A DNA stretch of 64,000 bases. It comes from Massalongia carnosa (taxonomy: Eukaryota). The stretch lies in contig OZ287084.1 of assembly GCA_965645245.1 (NCBI GenBank), positions 434,001 through 498,000 on the forward strand, read 5' to 3'. The position numbers and the translations under genes were made by a program. Below the pieces are notes generated by a model. It was not told the DNA's origin, did not search any database, and was given only the letters and a program-made list of their open reading frames with translations. How positions within the stretch are numbered: the stretch's first letter is position 1; each line of letters opens with the position of its first letter. Below are positions 35,638-64,000 of this stretch, piece by piece.

Positions 35638-36960
35638 CACACGCTCGCAGAAAAAAAAGCGACAACCAAAAATTTTACCCCATCAAATCCCCCTTTTCAT
35701 CAACAACCAGCACCAACAACCAGCATTTAGTCATCATGAAAAGCTGATTATATTCATCTAACTATTAGCCAGTCATCTGGCCCTCGCCATCTATGACTGC
35801 TTGCAACCGATCAGGCATTTCATCAACTTTTTCATTAATAAATGCCTGAGAAACACGATCCCATCCTTCATTAATTAGCTCCTTGGTCGTCGCATCGTCC
35901 CAATGAGGATATTTACGAAGATGTTGCTTCGGAGTTGACCAGCTGTTTTCCACAGGAGATAAATCAGGTGATGAAGCACAATTGAAATAATGGTTTAGAT
36001 GATTTGTCTCCTTCCAAGTGCGTACGATGTTTGATTTGCTCGGTCCATGACCCGAATCCCCATCTTCTTCAAGCACGAAGTCATGCCCCTGATCAAGCCA
36101 CGGCTTGACCACCGGCTCCAAAGTCTGATCAATATACACCCGTTGACTCATCTTTCCATTGGCATTGCCCGGCACGTTGCAATAATGAATATCTGACTTG
36201 AAATCGTGACCAACAGCTGCCCAGCAATGATGCCGTTTCACATCTCTAGAATCTGGTTCTTCTGCTTGCTGTATACAGTCCTGACATTATCTTTCGCCCG
36301 GCTGGCGAATGATGGACAGTTTACCTTGAGGACCCCATCCGAAATGCACCTCATCACTGAATCGTACGTTATGCCAGTCAGACTTTTCAGGATATCTTTT
36401 CAACATAACTTTGGCCCAATCAGAGCGACGACGAGCTGTTTTCTCATTGACCCGGCCCTTTCTGCATGCGACGCATTTGTGATAATCCATCGTTCCCATA
36501 GCTATTTGTATGATTCGTCCCGAGCATTCAAGTCCCACCTCATAGCCCAAGTGTACCCAGGTGAGAGCACGCGCCTCAAATCCCTCCTCCTCTATGATGC
36601 GCTCCATTTCGCGAATTTTTTGTGGAGTAACAATAGCCTTTCGCCCTCGCGTTTCAGGAAGATCAGGCTTATTGTGATGTCTTCGCGAGCTCTCCTGATT
36701 TAAAGCTCTCCAGCCGGCATGATGACTCACATTAAACGTACGAAAAACGTCGTCTTTGAAGTAGAGAATGCCCATGCGATCGCAGAATTCAACGGCTCCT
36801 TGAATTTTAGCTTTTGTAGGAGTAGGATAGTGCATTCTAGATTCAGAAGAGTTAGGCTCAGGTGTGTTGGGTCGTTCCATGATGCTGGTTGTTGGTGAAA
36901 AGGGGGGATTTTTGATGGGGTGAAATTTTTGGGTGTCGCTTTTTTTTCTGCGATCGCGTG
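35638..36960 (-). mobile_element. Tc1/mariner-superfamily DNA transposon (DD37E spacing), ~1.32 kb
   Basis: ~75-78-bp TIRs at 35638-35712 and 36883-36960 (CAC.CG.TCGCAGAAAAAAAAGCGACA.CCAAAAATTT.ACCCCATCAAA...) enclose a transposase. Flanked on both sides by CCATG. Confidence 0.92.
35765..36880 (-). pseudogene. Tc1-like DDE transposase with one in-frame stop
   Basis: ATG 36880 (MERPNTP), VRFSDEVHF, a single TAA at 36287-36289, then the same frame continues through FVLEEDGDSGH...SPDLSPVEN to 35765. There are 37 residues between the second D and the E. Confidence 0.9.
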
Positions 36961-54201: not shown

Positions 54202-56083
54202 GGGAGATGGTACAAAGAGGAGCAGCGTGGCAAGTAGACTTAGTACCGTGTTTGGGATAGTGGAACTGGGACCCTAGCCTGCTTGAACGCAAAATCCGAG
54301 TTCACGTTTGAAACCCACCACTCCTGTCTGGTTGTTGGATATTTTTAGGCATCACCACTTTTCTCCCCAAGCATCTCCGGCGCTTTTGCTCCCCCTTTCC
54401 TTCTCTAGCTGTTTCGGTCCACCCAGATACCACCTCTCAAATCCCCTTTCCCCAGCCTCCTCCGTCGGTTCCGGACTCCTGAACTCCTCCCTATCTACTA
54501 CTTCCCCTTTCATTCACCCCTTCTATGCCTCTTATACAAACGAACACCTTACGTACATATATATCTATCCATCTTGCTTCTCCCATCCCACCCCCTCCCT
54601 AGCTCCTCTTCTCGTCATCGACTATAGCAATACTAAATTCTGCACGTAGATCCGTGAAATAACCGCCAAAATAAAAAAAACGATACACAGACACACGGCA
54701 GACCTCATGGAGGTCATATCAGAATCGCACACCTACCCCCACAAGCAGCCTCATTATCCACCCAAAAAAAACACACCGAGCTGTTCATGTAACTGATTCA
54801 AACAACCCGCGAAACATTTAATCATGTTTTGCCAACTCAACAACAACACAGTCAATGTGACGTTCAATAAAAAAACAAATCAACGTCGATTAATTACTGA
54901 CTCATTTTAAAGCAATGAAATTCGTTACCGCTTGATTAACGAAAACAGGTTTGCTGACACAATTGTCGTTGACAGCATAACACCTAATCGTGTAAAGAAA
55001 CTGTACAGTGAACACATATTTACCTACCCATATACAAATAGTAAATGAAACGCAAACATGGAAAGTGAGTCGCGTGAAGTTGCGACTGTTGTTAGAGAAG
55101 GAAAGGGGGAAGAGGGGAAAGGAGGATCGTTTGGTCTAGCATCGTCTCATCACCCCAAACTCCCAACCCCCCAACCTATTTACTGCTTATCCCAGGTTGC
55201 CTAAAGAACAATAATAGGAAAACACCTTGGTTGCATGATTTGATGCCTTCTTCTGAGATTTGGGGGCTGGGGGCTGAGGGCCGGCTGGGGGGGCCGGGAG
55301 CGCTGGCTAGGGCGAAAGAGGGGGAAAGGGAAGGTGAAAGTTTCGCGAGAGGAGGAGGTTGGAGGGAAAAAGGATACTTGCTTTTTCTTTGATTTGAGAG
55401 TTTCTGAACTCGAGAGCCATGAGTTTTGAGTTTTGAGTAAATAGTGTTGAATATATTGAATATACTGCAATGCGCAAGAAGAAGAAAGCCCATCGCATCC
55501 TCCCTCCCTTTTCTCTCTCTTGCATCAATCATGGCTCAACTCGAGTCCCTTTTCCCCCCATAGCCTATTCCACCCCACCCTATTCCCCCATATTTTGCCT
55601 TCCCCCCCCCTCTGTTCCTGAATGAAAGAAAGTAACAGGTATCACTAGGTTCGGTAAGTGGCTCGCTCGCAGGGCAGAAAAGGGGGGATTGGTCTCTTCC
55701 TCCTTAGGGCGTGTAGTATATTTTAAACCCCTCCTAACAGGTCGGGGTATATAGAGCTCTGGAGAGGGGTATCGCGGAGTAATGAGGTGAGAGGGGTTTG
55801 ATGTGTGTGGGTATGGGGATGGGGATGGGGATATTGTATGTATGTATAAAAGAGTGGGGGGGTAATTAAATATCTTCAGAGGAAAAGGGTAAGGGAAAGA
55901 AATATTCGGCTTACCTTTTAAGAAAAATGGTAGAGTAAGTAAAGGGGGTGTAGACGACAACGGCAGGTTTTTATGTTTAGAAAGGAAAATGAGAAAAAGA
56001 AAATGCCAAAGAACTCGCCTGGAAGGAGTCCAGGTGCGCTTTTTCGGTTTCTTGTGTTGCGTAACAAGAGGACCAGTAACGAT

Positions 56084-56107
56084 TGCTGCTGCTGCTGCTG
56101 CTGCTGC
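56084..56107. repeat. (TGC)n microsatellite
   Basis: 8 tandem TGC units. Confidence 0.9.
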
Positions 56108-56500
56108 ACAACCAAGGAAAGGGGAGGAATCCGCACGCTGGGAATATCAAGTCTCCATTCTCCCTACGGACAACAGCAAAAGCTGAAGTTGTGTCAAGCA
56201 AGGGGACAGAACAGAACAACACATGCAAAGGGTAAATGATTCGCCGACGCAACACCAAATCACTCCTCATCCCATCCTCCAAAGCCCTTCTTACAAGAAC
56301 GAAACACTCCACTCCACCCAACCCCATTGAACCAAACCTTGACTCTTGAACCCGAAACACCAAGCCGCCACCGCCGCCGCACGGTCGCTGCGTTGCCACT
56401 GCTTTCATAATCCAGCCAGTGGCATATCTGCAGACTGGGTATCCAAATCTTTCCCTCAAACCCATCCACTTCGTCTACCCCTCCCCAATCACCTTCCACC

Positions 56501-58526
56501 CTACTCGGTACCACTCCCCGCGCTCACGCTCCGCAAAGAATCATCCTGCTTCCCACGACTCATCCACCCCGAGATCCAACTAGCCCGATTCGCCTTTTTC
56601 TTCGCCGCCAGATCTGCCTCGTCCAGCTTCCCTGCCGCAATGCCCTGCAACGTGCCCTCTATATCACGGTTTTCCTGCACAAGACGTAGCGGGCGCAGCT
56701 TACTCTGCGTCATCACTGCCCCAGTGTAGTTATTCGGTAGGGCATTGGCGCGCGGGGCACCAGCCGTGGAGCCGATTTCACCGCTATTATCGCTGAAGGT
56801 GCTGTTGGAACTGCTGCCGGACCTTTCTTGACCGAGGCGCGAGCCAGATGGGGTGCGGGATGAGGTGCTGTTGATATTTGCAGCTCCGAAGTAGGAATTT
56901 CGCGAAGGAATGCTGCTGGGCGGTAAGCCAGGGCTCATCATGGCTCCAGACCCTGTTGATGGAGGACCGCGATACATTTGGTTGACTAAAGGCGCGACGG
57001 ATGCTAAGTCGGACTGGGATCGTCGATGTGCGCTCGTGCCACGAGTTGATTGCGAACGGGAGAGGGGAATGCTGGGAGCTTTAGATAGATCTTCATTGGG
57101 AGTGCTGGGAACCTTGAAAGGATTTTCAGAAATGCTGGGAGCCGACGCTTGAGATGGTATCAGGCTAACAGGCCTGGGACGGCGCGGGCCACCAACAACT
57201 GATCTTGCCCGCTGTAGCATGGAGGGTGGGGCGTCGTCGTCCTTGGGAGGCGGCGGGGGAAGCTCCTTGTCAAAGTGCATAGAGGTATGGCGTGGTGCCC
57301 CAGACATAAGATCCGGCGTTTTATCCAAGATATTTTCGAATTCCTTATGCTGCAACAGGCGGCCGATGATATTCTCAATATATAGCGTTAAAGCTTTATT
57401 CTGATCTTTCAATGACTTGGCTTCAAGCTCCAACCGGCGATAATTGTCGCTTTCACCTTCGGCCGATTCTAATTCTTCAGCCAGAGAGCCTAGCCTCCCT
57501 CGCCCTTCCATGAGCTCTGTTTTGCTAAAGTCTCCGTTCAAGGTTTTCTCGCTTAGCAGGAGCTGAAAACTCTCGTTGTCCTCCATCAACCGGGCATTTG
57601 TAATCCGAGTTTCCAAAAGGCTCTTTTCCAGCTCGTGCATTCGACTTCCTCTTAGACTTTCAATTTCCATGTTCTTGATTTGTACTTCAGTTAACTCAAG
57701 CCGAAGGGTTTCAATAACCTTGTCTTTCTGTACGAGCAGGTTGGAATTGTTCTTCGAATCAACACGCGAGAGAGCCGACGGAGGTGCAAATTGTTCGTTC
57801 ACAATGTCTCCAGAGGATCTACTGCGAAAGTTCGCTTCGAGGTGTTAAAAAAGATCTTCAAGATTGTGCAATTCAGAGCTTACGAGATTTTGGAAGCCCT
57901 CTATCTTCATCGACACTGTAGCGCGCTTCTCGCTGTGCCCAGGTGTCTTTGAGCCTTTGAATCACCAACTCTAGCTCTTCTTGTTTGAGTTTCTGCTCAC
58001 TTTTGTCCCTCATGAACGCCATTCGCTCGGCCTCAAAGTTCGCTTCCAGGTCCCGTTTTTGTCTTGATTCCTGGAGTCTCGCACTTTCAAGCTCTTCCAT
58101 CTTTCCGGAATCTTCGGCCATTTGGTCTTCAAGCTTTGCTTGGTGCGATAATGAATCGTCCAAGCGTGTTTGGAGCAGATTCAGCTGACGTTGGTAGTCC
58201 TCGGATGCAGTTTCTGCCTTGCGCATTCTGCTCTTTAACTCGTCCATGATTGTTATGTTCTCCGCCCTTGCATCCTCCTCGCTTGGATCGTCTGAAACAT
58301 TGAAATTCATGTTGGCGTTGGGTGAAGGCCGTTTCACCGCTTCTCGGCCTGATCTATTAGACGTGCCAGCAGTTCCTCGTGTGGACTGGACTCTCGCAAG
58401 ACCGTTTGCTGTCACCGTTGTAGAACTAGCGCCGCGAGCCATGGGAGAGCGTGAAGGAGTTGACATGACAGCAGGTTTCGGGTTCAAGGACTTGGATGGG
58501 GATGGTTTCTTGGCAGCTGATGACAT
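56501..58526 (-). CDS. Coiled-coil protein with disordered Ser/Pro-rich C-terminus (possible Rab11-FIP-like motif)
   Basis: Exons 58526-57884 and 57834-56501 (GTAAGC...AAG, frame preserved). Long heptad-rich segments and the motif LKDQNKALTLYIENIIGRLL. Confidence 0.85.
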
Positions 58527-59202
58527 GATCGCATGTCGCCTCTCCCGCTAAATAGATGGGCTGTTGGATTACAAGTCAAAGGAGGCGTTTAGATGTTGGG
58601 CCTTAGCTAATCTTGAGATCCCTAAGGTACTCTGTGGCGGCGGACGTGCAAGACGAATTAGATTTAGTCGGTATAGCATGCAATAATGTTGGTTTGTTGC
58701 ATACTCTGTATGACAGTCAGATCGGTTCTTGTCGGACGCTGGATGCTTGTAAAAGTGCATCAGTTTATAAATAAACAATGTTCCGGACCCTGCATCAGCC
58801 ACCACTTTCGGCGAAAGCGTCACCGCGACGATGGATGAATGTGGTTCCCTCTGCTCTGCGAAGTACCCAAGTGATCAGTGATGGAAGCACCACCTTTGGT
58901 GGCGATTCGATTCAACGAGAAATCAAGACGATGTCAAGAAATACTCGTACGCAGACGTACGGAGTAGTTCTAGCAAACCAGGCTGACCTTCACTTCTTCG
59001 AAACCAGGGGTCGGGACCTCGTGGCGTAGAGGCTGAATAATTAGTTAGACCCAGAGTCACATGATCCTCGTCTAGTCCTCGGTTAATAAGGACGGAAACA
59101 CAACAATTTCCATTCTTGGCATTTACGAAATCTAATCAACCAAAAAGTCCGAAACGTCTTCACCATTACTAACAGTCTTAAAACCCCTTGGAGCCCACAA
59201 CG

Positions 59203-59810
59203 ATGGCACCAGTGAAGAAAGCAAAGAAGACTGCCGACTCCATCAATTCTCGCCTGGCTTTGGTCATGAAGAGCGGAAAAGGTGTGTAATCTAGCTCGCG
59301 ATTCAGTCGATGAAAGCACACAATGCCGTCTGCAGCACTAGCTAATTCTCGTTGCAATAAAGTCACTTTGGGCTACAAGTCGACGCTGAAGACCCTTCGC
59401 TCCGGCAAAGCAAAGCTTGTTATCATTGCTGGCAATACCCCTCCTCTGCGCAAGAGCGAGCTTGAGTGTATGATCGCCACCATCTCTTGAATGCGATCTC
59501 GCTCACAAAATCACACAGACTACTCCATGCTCTCGAAAACCAATGTTCATCACTTTGCAGGGAACAATGTAAGCTGTCACCGCCGACCCCAAAGCTCCGT
59601 AATAATCCATCAGCCCAACGACCAGACAAATGTCTTTGAGGGTTCACCCTGAGAAGAGGTCTTGAGATAAGACTTTGGAGGGTTCACAATTCAGCTGACG
59701 CGCCTTTACAGATTGAGCTAGGAACAGCGTGCGGCAAGCTTTTTAGATGTGGTGTCATTGCCGTCTTGGATGCCGGTGACTCGGATATCCTGAGTGGCGC
59801 TACAGCATAA
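59203..59810 (+). CDS. RPL30: 60S ribosomal protein L30 (eL30)
   Basis: Exons 59203-59281, 59363-59467, 59519-59568, 59712-59810 give [62 protein letters not shown]. Confidence 0.97.
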
Positions 59811-60061
59811 ATAGATAGCAATTGGTTGTGACTGATGGTAAACTTTACGCTGGTTACCATGTTACCCTTCTCTCTATATCGGTGTAGTGGGGATAGATGT
59901 ACATTTAATGAAAGAGATTTTGGGTGGTTAGATGTCATGAGCTTCACACACGAGCTAATTCTTTGATATCAAACACCTCTGGGTCCGAAACATTTGACGA
60001 GACCACCGACTAGCTAGATGTTGATTCATATAGGTCTGTGATGCGAAACGAGTCAACTTGA

Positions 60062-60074
60062 GCCCTAACCCTAA
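60062..60074. promoter_or_regulatory. Telomere-like GCCCTAACCCTAA motif (Tbf1/HomolE-type ribosomal-protein promoter element)
   Basis: Two CCCTAA units about 150 bp upstream of the RPL10 ATG, with AGTGACT (HomolD-like) at 60105-60111. Confidence 0.5.
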
Positions 60075-60220
60075 TTGGACGGAATAAGTTAGCAGCAAAA
60101 TCCTAGTGACTTTGATTTCAAAGCGATTTGAAGTCTATACATATATCATTTCTACGAACTCTGTCGACCTCCGACTTTATAAACTACAAGACACCGTTCG
60201 CAGGAATATAGTATTAAAAA

Positions 60221-61266
60221 ATGGCCCGCCGCCCAGCCAGATGTTATCGCTATTGCAAGAACAAGGTACGTCCACCATAACCCGCCTCGCACACAAACGG
60301 CGAAAATGGTACAAAAATCACCCCAAAATCACAATAACCACAAGAACTCATGACTGCCTCGTTCCAAGAGTATCACATAAAAGCTTACCTGAACCTTCTC
60401 TCTACCAGCCATATCCCAAATCCCGCTTCAATCGCGGTGTGCCCGACCCCAAAATCCGCATCTTCGATCTCGGCCGCAAGCGCGCCAACGTGGATGAGTT
60501 CCCGCTGTGCGTGCACATGGTCTCGAACGAGTACGAGCAGCTCTCTTCCGAAGCCCTCGAGGCCGCTCGTATCTGCGCCAATAAGTACATCCTCATTTCA
60601 TGGCATTCCATCATATCAGCTCCAGCAAAACAAACATCCCACCCAATATCTCCCTCCTCAAACACGATATTCAAGACCGCCGACTAACCGCTGCTCGGAA
60701 CTAAACTTTAGATACCTCGTCAAGATTGCCGGCAAGGAAGGTTTCCATCTCCGTGTCCGCGCCCATCCATACCACGTCGTTCGCATCAACAAGATGTTGT
60801 CATGCGCGGGGGCCGATCGACTGCAAACTGGTATGCGGGGCGCGTGGGGAAAACCCAACGGCTCCGTCGCCCGTGTGAACATTGGCCAGATTCTGCTATC
60901 CGTGCGAACACGTGATAATCGTACGTCCACACCCCTCTCTTTCCCTGATTCCTGCACCTTTCCCCTCACCCTTCATTCCCCCCTTCCCAGTCCCGAACCT
61001 TATGTACCCCCCCTAACAAATCTCCAGACCGCGCCACCGCAATCGAAGCCCTCCGCCGCTCGCAATACAAGTTCCCAGGACGGCAAAAGATCATCGTCAG
61101 CAAGAACTGGGGCTTCACCCCGCTGCGGCGCGACGAGTACCAGGCCAAGCGCGCCGCGGGCCAGATCCGCATTGACGGCGCCTATGTGCAGTTTCTGCGC
61201 AACAAGGGGCCGATTGAGCGGAATTTGGGGAAGTTCCCGGAGGCGTTTGAGACTGCGGAGGCGTAG
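60221..61266 (+). CDS. RPL10: 60S ribosomal protein L10 (uL16)
   Basis: Exons 60221-60265, 60409-60584, 60712-60920, 61028-61266. [54 protein letters not shown]. Confidence 0.98.
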
Positions 61267-61991
61267 GTGGGGTGGATAATTGGGTTGGGGGTGAGGGGAG
61301 GAGATGATGGGGAAGAGCGCGGAGTGCAGGAGGGGGAGGAATGGGGCTTGTCGGTTGACTAAGTACATGGCTAGATCTGAATCAAGCCGCTATGATATGA
61401 ATAGAGGAGTAGAAAGCATTCGCTTTATCTGGGGGTCACCGCAATGCCAAACCCTCTCCCACCTACGTATGAATCCAAATCCACGTACCTTCTTTAATAC
61501 TTACTGTTCTCGTAAATTACCACACACTCAGGACTAATTGCATCACAACGAAACGAAAAGTTGTTTTGTGTGTTAAAAAAATTGGGGAATCATTTAGAAT
61601 TCTTAGCCACACTTTTCCGCGCTTACTGTATGTACCACAAGCTACGACCACCCCAACTCATCGAACCACGCCCTCCTGAGCTTTGTTTTTTAAAAAAAAA
61701 CACATGATTCAGCAACCAAAGCCCTCGAAAAAATTCTGCATCAAATATCGAAAACTAGCTCCCTAAGTCAAGATTCTACTTATTTTGGGAAACTTTGGAT
61801 CGAGCTGTGAGCATAAGTGATGAAGATGTGGAGCTATTATTAGCGGTTACAAGAGTTGGAAAGCCGGCATGCTGGTGGCGATGAGCTGCTGGCGCGAGAG
61901 TCAAGGCGGGTCCAGGGACCTTCTAGAGGAATGAGGAGTTTGGAGCCGCTCTTAGCATGGTGTTAGTAGGTCTGGAGTATGGGCCGAGAAT

Positions 61992-62641
61992 TCAATTTTT
62001 CTCGATGCATACCGTTGACAGAACGTTGCGGGCCTTGAGGGGAACGCCTTCATCCTGGGATACTGTCAGCCTACGAACAGGATGGGCTTGTGGAGCGTGG
62101 AATACCTGAACCTGTTTGTGCCTGAATGTGGTATCAATGTTGCGATTCTTCAGAGGGACTCCTTCGCCCTTGAGGAATGTCAATGATTACGGATACTGGG
62201 GCTTGGGGTCGAGGGTTCAGTTACCTGGACCCACTCGTGGCTGGAGATGGTGTCGACATTGCGGTTATTTAGGGGAACACCTTCATCCTTCGAAAAGGAT
62301 TAGCACCTTTGATAGTGGGTCAAGGCCTGGTATATTGGATTACCTGAACCCACTCATGAGCGGAGGTGCTGTCCACGTCACGCTGCTTAAGGGGAACGCC
62401 TTCGTCCTTTAAGAAGGATAAGTGTTTTTGCCATCGAGCTAATAGTTGGCTGAATTAATTACCTGTACCCATTCGTGGGTGGAGGTGGAATCAGCGTCCC
62501 GGGATTTCAACTTAATACCCTCGTCCTACGAGGGATGTTAGCCAGGACTATGATAAAACCTTTTTAGCTTTGAAGTTACTTGAACTCGCTCATGGGTAGA
62601 AATGCTGTCGACATCGCGTTGAACGAAGCGCTTGGCGAAGC
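61992..62641 (-). CDS. Multi-exon tandem-repeat peptide precursor (KEP/RiPP-like); 5' end unresolved, may be a pseudogene
   Basis: Exons 62641-62580, 62525-62463, 62406-62344, 62287-62225, 62168-62106 and 62054 onward, separated by GT..AG introns of 54, 56, 56, 56 and 51 nt. The spliced frame is open and encodes five 21-aa repeats. It ends at TGA 61992, or at 61840 via a further intron 62012-61951. Confidence 0.75.
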
Positions 62642-62941
62642 CTGAAGTGGGCGGGAAAGCATTAGCGGATCCATCTCCAGCATCTCAAAAACATATCATT
62701 GGCATATATATGAGAATAAAGGCTTGGTTTATTAAGGAGAGCAGATTGAAAGCATATAGACAGAAACAGAAAGAAATTTATCTGGTCGCCTATCCTCCCA
62801 ACCGGCAAAAAGAAATACATGAAGACAAAAAAAAATCCCGTCCAAATCTCCCTTGAACAGCGACCTAAAAGGGACCGCAAGACTGAGTTAAATAAGCTTG
62901 AGAGTCTTCTTCTTTTCGCAGTTTCAAACTATGGGGCGTAG

Positions 62942-63755
62942 TTAAACATAAGCTTGGGTGAGAGCAAGTGGCTCCACGAGCTCGGTGATGGTGGTGATTG
63001 CAGGTTGTTGCGTCGCGATAACAGTGACAGTCATCCCTGGTGGCTGCGCTGTATACACATCTAAGGTCATTGTGGTGGTTCTGGTCGATGTTAGTGTGCT
63101 ATGGAGGGTTGTTGTCGGCTGCCGCAATGAGACTGGCAAAGGCAGAAAGTGCGTTTGATTCCGGAGAGGCTGAAGAGCTTGCTGCGTTGTTTGATTCTTT
63201 GCTGTTTGCTGCTATGTCAGAAAAGATAGCTCTACCTCAAGAAGAGAGAGTTCATTTGCCTACCATGGATACAGTATTGTACGCTAAGCTCTAGATTCCT
63301 GCAATCCGAGTTGATAGATGGGTTCAGGCTCCGGAACTCGTTGAGGGTAATTGGTCCTTGAGACAGCGCCTCTTCGCAAGCTTTTTCATGTTTCTGGTTG
63401 ATCCAGTAGATCTTCTGGCAGTTCGGGATTTTTATTTCGGAGGAGTTGGTGCTTGTATCTGAGAAACCATCAAGGTGGTTGGGGCTGAGATGAAGAGTAT
63501 CGCAAGCTCGCTGATCCAAGTACAAGAGCGAGAGCATTTGCTCGAAGATCTAAAACCAACGGCAATGGCCAGAGATGGCCTGGAAAAGCAAAAAGAACTC
63601 GCTGCAATGGAGATAATCTAAAACTACATCAGGAGAGACTTACGTCCTTGGAGTGGGCCAGTCACGGCGGCAGCAATGGCACCTGGAAGCGCAATGGCAC
63701 CTGGAAGCGCAATGGCAATAGAGCCGAGCACGGTGAGGATAACGGACAACTTCAT
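62942..63755 (-). CDS. Secreted LysM-domain protein with Thr-rich tail
   Basis: Signal exon 63755-63644 (MKLSVILTVLGSIAIALP), LysM exon 63458-63264 (IPNCQKIY..ITLNEFRSLNPSINSDCRNLELSVQYCI), Thr-rich exon ~63202-62942. Acceptors were chosen by frame compatibility. Confidence 0.75.
63673..63716. repeat. 18-bp tandem duplication in the LysM signal region
   Basis: GCAATGGCACCTGGAAGC twice plus a partial copy, encoding AIALPG-AIALPG. Confidence 0.85.
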
Positions 63756-64000
63756 CGTTGCGGAATTGAATGGATATATCTGAAAGTTGTTATCCCCAAA
63801 TTAGCATGTCTCTAAAAAATTCTGCATGACGCTCAAGAAAAGTTTGCCCAGATGCCTTTTTGGAGGGTACGAGCTCGGTCTGACAAGACGAGACAAGAAA
63901 AGGGTCTGTGAGAGCAGTATGGTGATATGCTAACTGAAGTCTAGGCTAGTGACATACGAAGCAGCAGCAGCTTAACGAGGAGAAGACTGTATGAGATGAG

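Follow-up and report, generated by a model that had tools for sequence, protein, structure and literature searches.

A hidden tandem repeat gene with one unit per exon in Massalongia carnosa, and its possible role as a Kex2-processed peptide precursor

Several described fungal systems consist of secreted proteins that are tandemly repeated, cleaved by Kex2, or both. In alpha-type pheromone precursors, repeats with a W..C/GQP core are flanked by KR and Ste13 dipeptides (XA/XP). PIR proteins of the yeast cell wall are secreted and contain short tandem units with Q, D and G (Pfam repeat PF00399), with a Kex2 site located ahead of the repeats. Dikaritins have cores of 4-8 residues with Tyr cross-links. 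Candida Ece1 and Ustilago Rep1 are said to belong to the repeat proteins that Kex2 processes (KEPs), and SnTox3 is reportedly a Kex2-processed pro-domain (K2PP) effector with an expanded LxxR motif. Published accounts characterize KEPs by an endoplasmic reticulum (ER) signal peptide together with repeats that have Kex2 sites between them (PMC7329392), name these sites as KR, RR or KK (PMC9769878), and place the cores of dikaritin precursors between KR sites (PMC7329392, PMC9769878). Kex2 favours an aliphatic P4 residue such as Leu and can act with a non-basic P2, LxxR is in use as an expanded Kex2 motif (both PMC8528282), and KEPs expressed in Pichia were reported to be cut behind a single Arg (PMC9769878). 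Here, we describe a repeat gene of Massalongia carnosa located near one end of a 64,000-nucleotide stretch of contig OZ287084.1 (positions 434,001 to 498,000; hereafter, the window). This array is very probably a real hidden, spliced, protein-coding tandem gene. A secreted, Kex2-processed product is plausible in view of cleavage-type motifs and a matching splice phase.

We read the minus strand of positions 61500-64000 and recomputed all exon/intron boundaries from the sequence. The array has six small exons of 62+1, 63, 63, 63, 63 and 42 nt, all internal ones being in phase 0, and five GT..AG introns of 54, 56, 56, 56 and 51 nt; successive unit starts are 117, 119, 119, 119 and 114 nt apart. 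In order, the donors of introns 1-5 are GTAACT, GTAATT, GTAATC, GTAACT and GTATTC and the acceptors are TAG, AAG, AAG, AAG and CAG, with a branch-like CTAAC, CTAAT, TTGAC or CTGAC near the 3' end of four of the five introns. Introns 1-4 each contain a stop or shift the frame; with all five introns removed, a single open frame remains that repeats a 21-residue unit with the consensus DEGVPLKxR-DVDSTSxHEWVQ. An earlier note on this DNA had proposed this layout (a minus-strand period of ~119 bp), and our recomputation confirmed it, with exon translations identical letter for letter. The extent it gave to the gene (61992..62641) does contain the array but is probably too short, as the gene seems to continue to a predicted tail exon at 61950-61840. 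The features of the array are as follows:

Exon E1, 62641-62580, minus strand: 62 nt, phase 1 start; with one upstream base it makes the 21-codon unit x-FAKRFVQR-DVDSISTHERVQ
Translation of exon E1, 62641-62580, minus strand: FAKRFVQRDVDSISTHERVQ
Intron 1, 62526-62579, minus strand: 54 nt, GTAACT..GCTAAC..TAG, with an in-frame stop inside
Exon E2, 62525-62463, minus strand: 63 nt, phase 0, DEGIKLKSRDADSTSTHEWVQ
Intron 2, 62407-62462, minus strand: 56 nt, GTAATT..AAG, branch motif unclear
Exon E3, 62406-62344, minus strand: 63 nt, DEGVPLKQRDVDSTSAHEWVQ
Intron 3, 62288-62343, minus strand: 56 nt, GTAATC..GCTAAT..AAG
Exon E4, 62287-62225, minus strand: 63 nt, DEGVPLNNRNVDTISSHEWVQ
Intron 4, 62169-62224, minus strand: 56 nt, GTAACT..TTGAC..AAG
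Exon E5, 62168-62106, minus strand: 63 nt, the most diverged unit, GEGVPLKNRNIDTTFRHKQVQ
Intron 5, 62055-62105, minus strand: 51 nt, GTATTC..CTGAC..CAG, in frame and without a stop
Exon E6, 62054-62013, minus strand: 42 nt, a truncated unit, DEGVPLKARNVLST

In the list of stop-to-stop open reading frames (ORFs), the array appears as fragments only. The longest of them has 64 aa and is visible at E5/E6 because intron 5 is in frame and free of stops. The 119-nt period was not reported by Tandem Repeats Finder.

Codon usage supports translation of the joined exons. A log-odds score trained on eight long ORFs of the window gave +0.33 per codon in the repeat frame vs -0.23 and -0.71 in the two other frames, and was negative in all three frames of the joined introns; 6 of 763 background ORFs of 30-60 codons scored at least 0.33. 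Differences among E2-E5 were concentrated at third codon positions (10-14 of 21, compared to 3-9 at first and 3-7 at second positions). By the Nei-Gojobori method, the proportion of nonsynonymous differences (pN) was 0.16-0.33 and that of synonymous differences (pS) was 0.68-0.89 in all six pairs, so that replacement sites differed 3-4 times less between copies than synonymous sites. The third-position excess and a pN far below pS imply that the copies are old and that the peptide is under purifying selection, in line with the selection on the peptide suggested before. When a profile of the unit was compared with the six-frame translation of the whole window, no match was found outside the array. 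An antisense ORF of 100 aa (62110-62409, plus strand), which lies over E3-E5 and their introns, had a codon score of -0.06; it was rejected as a gene and attributed to the repeat itself.

Introns of the array were also compared with one another. Gapped global alignment, an insensitive test, gave an identity of 0.505 vs 0.481 +/- 0.042 in shuffles. When the three 56-nt introns (2, 3 and 4) were placed in register, they shared 31, 26 and 27 of 56 bases, with 27% expected; after exclusion of the splice-site ends, 23, 18 and 20 of 47 positions were shared (expected, 12.6), values that were reached 3, 283 and 65 times in 5000 shuffles. Register 0 scored above shifts of 1-3 nt. The introns had been described as not visibly alignable, which does not hold for these three. 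Because they keep in-register similarity, the array appears to have grown by duplication of whole exon+intron modules, and this part of the initial proposal is strengthened. Introns 2-4 (62169-62462) keep a length of exactly 56 nt at only 46-55% identity. In the flanking exons, divergence at synonymous sites (pS 0.68-0.89) seems no lower than that of these introns.

A homologue search found the same units and exon boundaries at two other loci. A HMMER profile of the six units was searched against 1,835,955,588 protein representatives (E<=0.001) and gave three matches, two of which were judged real: P0001 (70 aa, E 4.7e-25) and P0002 (66 aa, E 8.5e-10). Both are unnamed singletons found solely in Logan assemblies; the contigs that encode them measure 5.4 and 6.4 kb. 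P0001 contains the units DEGVPIKKRDVDATSTHEWVQ and DEGVPIKSRDVDSTSSHEWVQ with 19 unrelated residues between them, and P0002 contains DVGAPLKVRDVDSTSTHEWVQ followed by 21 unrelated residues and then DEGVPLK. In these sequences, the residue after VQ is V (GTn) in three of three cases, and K or Q (AAG/CAG) precedes each unit in four of four. Spacers and flanks are rich in F, Y, W, C, L, I and N (0.46 vs 0.10 in the units) and poor in D and E (0.03 vs 0.22). From these residues and this composition, the spacers look like in-frame GT..AAG/CAG introns of 57 and 63 nt. Thus, P0001 and P0002 are read-through ORFs of loci with the exon-intron plan of the window and introns at the same positions. The AAG acceptor may itself be conserved, as K precedes the unit in three of four cases in these ORFs. 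Their three full units are identical to window unit E3 at 17-18 of 21 positions, compared to 10-16 of 21 among the window units themselves. The two loci, whether in other species or paralogous, are independent copies in which the spacers have fully diverged and the peptide has not. With the open joined frame, the in-frame codon signal and these shared boundaries, the idea of a hidden spliced protein-coding array is well supported.

No annotated protein and no long spliced form among the searched representatives carries the repeat; it follows that neither gene calling nor transcript assembly has yielded the repeat protein in that library. The third match, P0003 (747 aa, E 5.3e-06), was discarded as an unrelated low-complexity repeat that partly matched the intron-derived flank of the profile. 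Word-index searches with the 44-aa ORF over E3 gave no candidate sharing three words among longer proteins, and with P0001 returned only P0001 itself among proteins of near length. Pfam searches (E<=10) of seven local ORFs gave a single chance match to HlyE (0.44) and none for the 44-aa and 64-aa repeat ORFs, and an ESM Atlas search with the unit alone gave no usable match. In metagenomes, the pattern DEGVPL[KN][QAN]R occurred in 10 stretches, two of which passed tblastn and belonged to one locus, L001. This was dismissed as a chance match, a lone DEGVPLKAR in a 51-aa ORF on a bacterial-looking contig, with no repeat.

At its 3' end, the gene probably extends over one more intron. GTATGC directly follows E6, and a perfect TACTAAC and then AAG are found within 62 nt of the donor; if this intron were retained, the frame would stop six codons past E6. 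The predicted tail exon has a weak codon-usage score (+0.09). These two features are inferred from splice signals:

Intron 6, 61951-62012, minus strand: 62 nt, GTATGC..TACTAAC..AAG
Tail exon, 61840-61950, minus strand: 36 codons (61950-61843) and a stop (61842-61840), SGSKLLIPLEGPW...CRLSNSCNR, with two Cys

At the 5' end, E1 begins in phase 1 behind a good acceptor and carries no ATG; therefore, an upstream exon is needed. With its borrowed base, E1 is 63 nt long and forms a full unit, the first half of which has diverged to x-FAKRFVQR. Eleven ATG-started upstream exons end at a phase-1 GT, and two of them have a positive donor score, the best being an exon that encodes a signal peptide (GTAAGT donor). 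As judged from phase, three candidate starts for E1 exist: this signal-peptide exon, the same exon followed by the LysM-like exon of a neighbouring gene, and a mini-exon without a signal peptide. The features involved are:

3' splice region before E1, 62642-62692, minus strand: GCTAAT, a pyrimidine run and CAG; as a whole, it could be a 51-nt intron whose GTTTTT donor is weak
Mini-exon candidate, 62693-62705, minus strand: 13 nt, ATG CCA ATG ATA T (MPMI and one base), phase 1
Signal-peptide exon, 63644-63755, minus strand: classical signal peptide MKLSVILTVLGSIAIALPG..., phase-1 end at GTAAGT; also the first exon of the LysM-like neighbour
Body of the neighbouring gene, 63099-63458, minus strand: Cys-rich LysM-like exon (63458-63264, phase-1 GTAGGC donor) and tail exon (63211-63099, including the stop)

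When the signal-peptide exon is joined to E1, an open frame of 192 aa results, in which the signal peptide leads into a short stretch ending in ...GRFAKR FVQR, and then come the peptides. The best single mechanism that we can propose for the array is a secreted, kexin-processed, KEP-like multi-copy precursor with monobasic LxxR-type sites, and not the precursor of a dikaritin-type peptide that is made on the ribosome and modified after translation (RiPP). Such a precursor would enter the ER by means of the signal-peptide exon (63755-63644); the GTAAGT donor of this exon and the acceptor of E1 are both in phase 1 and thus compatible. In the Golgi, it would then be cut by a kexin-type (Kex2-like) protease on the C-terminal side of FAKR, of FVQR and of every [L/I]-[K/N]-x-R, and five acidic peptides of ~21 residues, [D/N]-x-D-S-T-S-x-H-E-W-V-Q-D-E-G-V-P-L-K-x-R, would be released. 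In the genome, the coding sequence of each mature peptide would be split by an intron.

This proposal is supported by the arginine at unit position 9, which is present in seven of seven full units (four of the window and three of the relatives) and in all six units of the window array, four of which are full 21-mers. The seven full units also agree in having L or I at position 6 (P4), K or N at position 7 and D or N at position 10 (P1'), and the partial units have L..R (E6) and F..R (E1). The earlier note stated that every repeat ends in LxxR; this needs to be widened to [L/I/F]xxR, as the unit ahead of the array ends in FVQR. The KR that it placed before the array is indeed there, once, immediately ahead of the first full peptide, and a KKR occurs in one unit of P0001. 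The sequence is conserved from the residue behind FVQR onward, and KAR closes the last consensus-matching half-unit. Read from R to R between these two points, the array therefore holds exactly five whole 21-residue peptides, each derived from two exons.

The array resembles KEPs (such as the yeast alpha-factor precursor and those in the surveys of Umemura 2020 and Le Marquer 2019) in having a short conserved peptide in tandem, an Arg at every unit border, a KR ahead of the first copy, hydrophilic units without Cys and a short non-repeat tail. It differs in that five of five borders are monobasic [L]xxR, whereas the KEP sites named in PMC7329392 and PMC9769878 are KR, RR or KK. It would work like a KEP and yet does not pass as a member, with a signal peptide in a candidate exon and dibasic separation at none of five borders. 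Aliphatic P4, variable P2-P3, invariant P1 Arg and a disordered acidic context are shared with K2PP effectors (PMC8528282). In those effectors, however, one site removes an N-terminal pro-domain from a folded protein, whereas here the motif occurs once per 21 residues and no folded domain lies behind it. Unlike PIR proteins, the array has no DGQ-hydrophobic-Q core, and its repeat ORFs belong to no Pfam family at E<=10; unlike alpha-type pheromone precursors, it has no KR-XA/XP spacers and no Cys in its units. A combination of one unit per exon with Kex2 processing was not found in the literature searched, and the motif strings of the unit were absent from the paper texts searched and from two KEP-survey supplements, which are possibly incomplete.

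With dikaritin precursors (UstA, PhomA and the asperipin precursor), the array shares a multi-core repeat plan. It differs in its 21-residue units and in the lack of any DUF3328/UstYa, tyrosinase or methyltransferase ORF in the window. DUF3328/UstYa, tyrosinase and subtilase domains were absent from the 104 window ORFs of at least 100 aa, and from a set of 86 ORFs made up of 79 of the 212 window ORFs of 45-99 aa (those located at 54.3-64 kb) and seven longer ones that are also among the 104. The window shows 1.4 kb on the 5' side of the repeat gene, and these negatives cover the 62 kb on the other side. The array and tail contain no Tyr. A dikaritin/RiPP reading, which had been raised for this locus, is not supported by these 62 kb, in which no UstYa, tyrosinase or peptidase domain was found.

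We hold the putatively secreted, kexin-processed precursor tentatively, as somewhat short of probable, because P2 is variable and R9 is not specially conserved. The following observations weigh against it. Between the upstream stop (62685-62687) and E1, no ATG occurs in the repeat frame, and the array has no signal peptide of its own. The signal-peptide exon seems to be part of a complete neighbouring gene and would have to be spliced to E1 over an intron of 1002 nt; intron lengths are 43-75 nt in the array and in seven heuristically inferred cases from other genes of this DNA. A nearer start is available in the mini-exon (ATG at 62705, 51-nt intron), which when joined to E1 gives a 159-aa product without a signal peptide. 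The splice signals of the array are weak: five of six donors (intron 6 included) have no G at +5 and three of five acceptors are AAG, whereas other genes of the window have stronger inferred donors, mostly GTAAGN. As to cleavage, the unit borders are KSR, KQR, NNR, KNR and KAR, none of the five being dibasic at P2-P1, and only one canonical dibasic site is present in the window array; set against the dibasic-site definition of KEPs, such monobasic borders count in the same direction. No column of the unit varies more than P2 (S, Q, N, N, K, S, V). R9 need not mark cleavage, because G3, D12, H17, V20 and Q21 are conserved at least as well.

The strongest alternative, which we consider possible though rather doubtful, is that the array encodes a self-contained hydrophilic protein of ~159 aa, starting at ATG 62705, that is neither secreted nor cleaved (for example, a disordered binding- or stress-type repeat protein) and in which [L/I]KxR is just a part of the unit. 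The mini-exon ends in phase 1 and its joined frame of 159 aa is open, with a GRAVY (grand average of hydropathy) of -0.80; its 51-nt intron falls in the 51-56-nt range of the array and has a GCTAAT branch motif and a CAG acceptor. A pyrimidine-rich stretch (62770-62735) lies just upstream, and CT-rich core promoters occur in filamentous fungi. As the neighbour looks complete by itself, two compact adjacent genes would be the simplest map, and the variability of P2 fits an uncleaved unit. Against this reading stand a very weak GTTTTT donor (negative in a rough donor matrix), although the absence of G at +5 is common to most array donors, and a candidate intron that aligns poorly with the array introns. 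The bases before both ATGs of the mini-exon also fit the usual start context of fungi poorly, and the KR and FVQR before the first peptide and the two Cys of the tail would be left without a role.

A second alternative involves the neighbouring gene. This gene (63099-63755, minus strand) probably has three exons and would encode a small secreted protein of ~139 aa, made up of a signal peptide, a LysM-like part with four Cys and a tail rich in S and A. Both its first and its second donor are in phase 1, the phase of the repeat-array acceptor. In the signal-peptide exon, an exact 18-bp tandem repeat of 2.5 copies (63673-63717) doubles AIALPG in the hydrophobic core. We call the neighbour LysM-like without assigning it to the family. 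In the ESM Atlas, the clusters closest to the 65-aa Cys-rich exon belong to LysM families of ascomycetes (score 0.88, no more than a lead), while Pfam gave no match at E<=10, a PDB sequence search gave only chance matches (E>=0.27), and a single-sequence AlphaFold model was poor (predicted local distance difference test, pLDDT, 63). Taken with the short introns and the CTAAC-type branch sites, the LysM-like neighbour points to a probable ascomycete as the source of the gene. Codon scores were 0.06 for this exon and 0.29 for the tail exon, the latter being reached by 14 of 763 background ORFs. A T-rich frame at 63199-62945 was rejected as the last exon of the neighbour (codon score 0.02); it has no phase-1 donor into E1. 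At 63402, one contig of run X4 (labelled organism B) departs from the window with a loose end that starts with GATC; the listed X4 pieces have no differing letters, and the break may be a library ligation junction rather than a variant.

The neighbour may stand as a gene of its own or, alternatively, belong to one transcription unit with the array. If the array were the C-terminal part of the LysM-like protein, a product of ~257 aa would result, with an acidic tail that is uncleaved or cut at KR. The GTAGGC donor at 63263 is in phase 1, the joined frame is open, both lie on the same strand, the array has no in-frame ATG of its own, and the ESM-Atlas lead concerns the very exon that would be joined. 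We nevertheless regard this fusion as very unlikely, as its intron of 622 nt would skip the tail exon, which has good codon usage, and the LysM assignment itself lacks support from Pfam or PDB sequences, from the model and from codon usage. In addition, no related protein of at least 185 aa was found: none of the 131 candidates that the LysM-like ORF retrieved among longer proteins reached E<=0.01.

Equally improbable is a decaying or untranslated remnant that has lost its start here and looks conserved through recent common descent with the two other loci: the missing in-frame ATG, the weak splice signals, the diverged E5 and partial E1 and E6, and the chance that P0001 and P0002 are loci of other species or paralogues would agree with it, but the frame is intact across six exons and the tail with no stop or frameshift, pN far below pS at saturated synonymous sites requires long-lasting selection, and units at the other loci are identical at 17-18 of 21 positions while the spacers are unrelated.

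The kexin-processed precursor can be extended to a more specific scheme, which we consider unlikely when taken as a whole. The array would then represent a new family of secreted precursors in which coding units and processing units are out of register, peptides are assembled by splicing, growth occurs by exon+intron duplication and cleavage is monobasic at [L/I]KxR. The signal-peptide exon would be shared with the LysM-like gene through alternative splicing, which would set both the product (by choice of the 3' exon) and the peptide copy number (by skipping of 63-nt exons). As a matter of arithmetic, exon skipping would preserve the frame, since all internal exons are 63 nt and in phase 0.

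The remaining genes of the window lie in the 62 kb on the 3' side of the array. They include genes for GRASP55/65, PC4, a PXA-PX sorting nexin, a 4HBT thioesterase, a DDHD lipase, an SDR protein, fimbrin (CH and EF-hand domains) and a P450 (52.1-54.2 kb), as well as an L7Ae/L30-type ribosomal protein and RPL10. The latter two (L7Ae/L30-type and L10/uL16, 59314-61276, plus strand) are adjacent to each other and run toward the 3' end of the repeat gene, convergent with it. A run of ORFs of 447, 224, 188, 165, 119 and 101 aa (55179-58874, minus strand), none of which matches Pfam at E<=0.01, lies 3-7 kb from the array and probably forms a single large gene of unknown family. A fragment of a DDE_3 superfamily endonuclease (35768-36286, minus strand; E 9.9e-06, below the Pfam cut-off) is probably a transposon remnant.

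Surveys of fungal peptide precursors, both KEPs and RiPP precursors, start from annotated proteomes, and this repeat gene is represented by no annotated protein among those searched. Because its exons are 63 nt long and have weak splice signals, only read-through ORF fragments of such genes are present in databases. If the peptides are not secreted, the gene is a clean example of a protein repeat that grew by duplication of exon+intron modules in a genome with short introns. If they are secreted, they form a new peptide family beside a LysM-like gene, and their copy number could be tuned by splicing. Should the array indeed represent a new precursor family, annotation-based KEP surveys would undercount such precursors.

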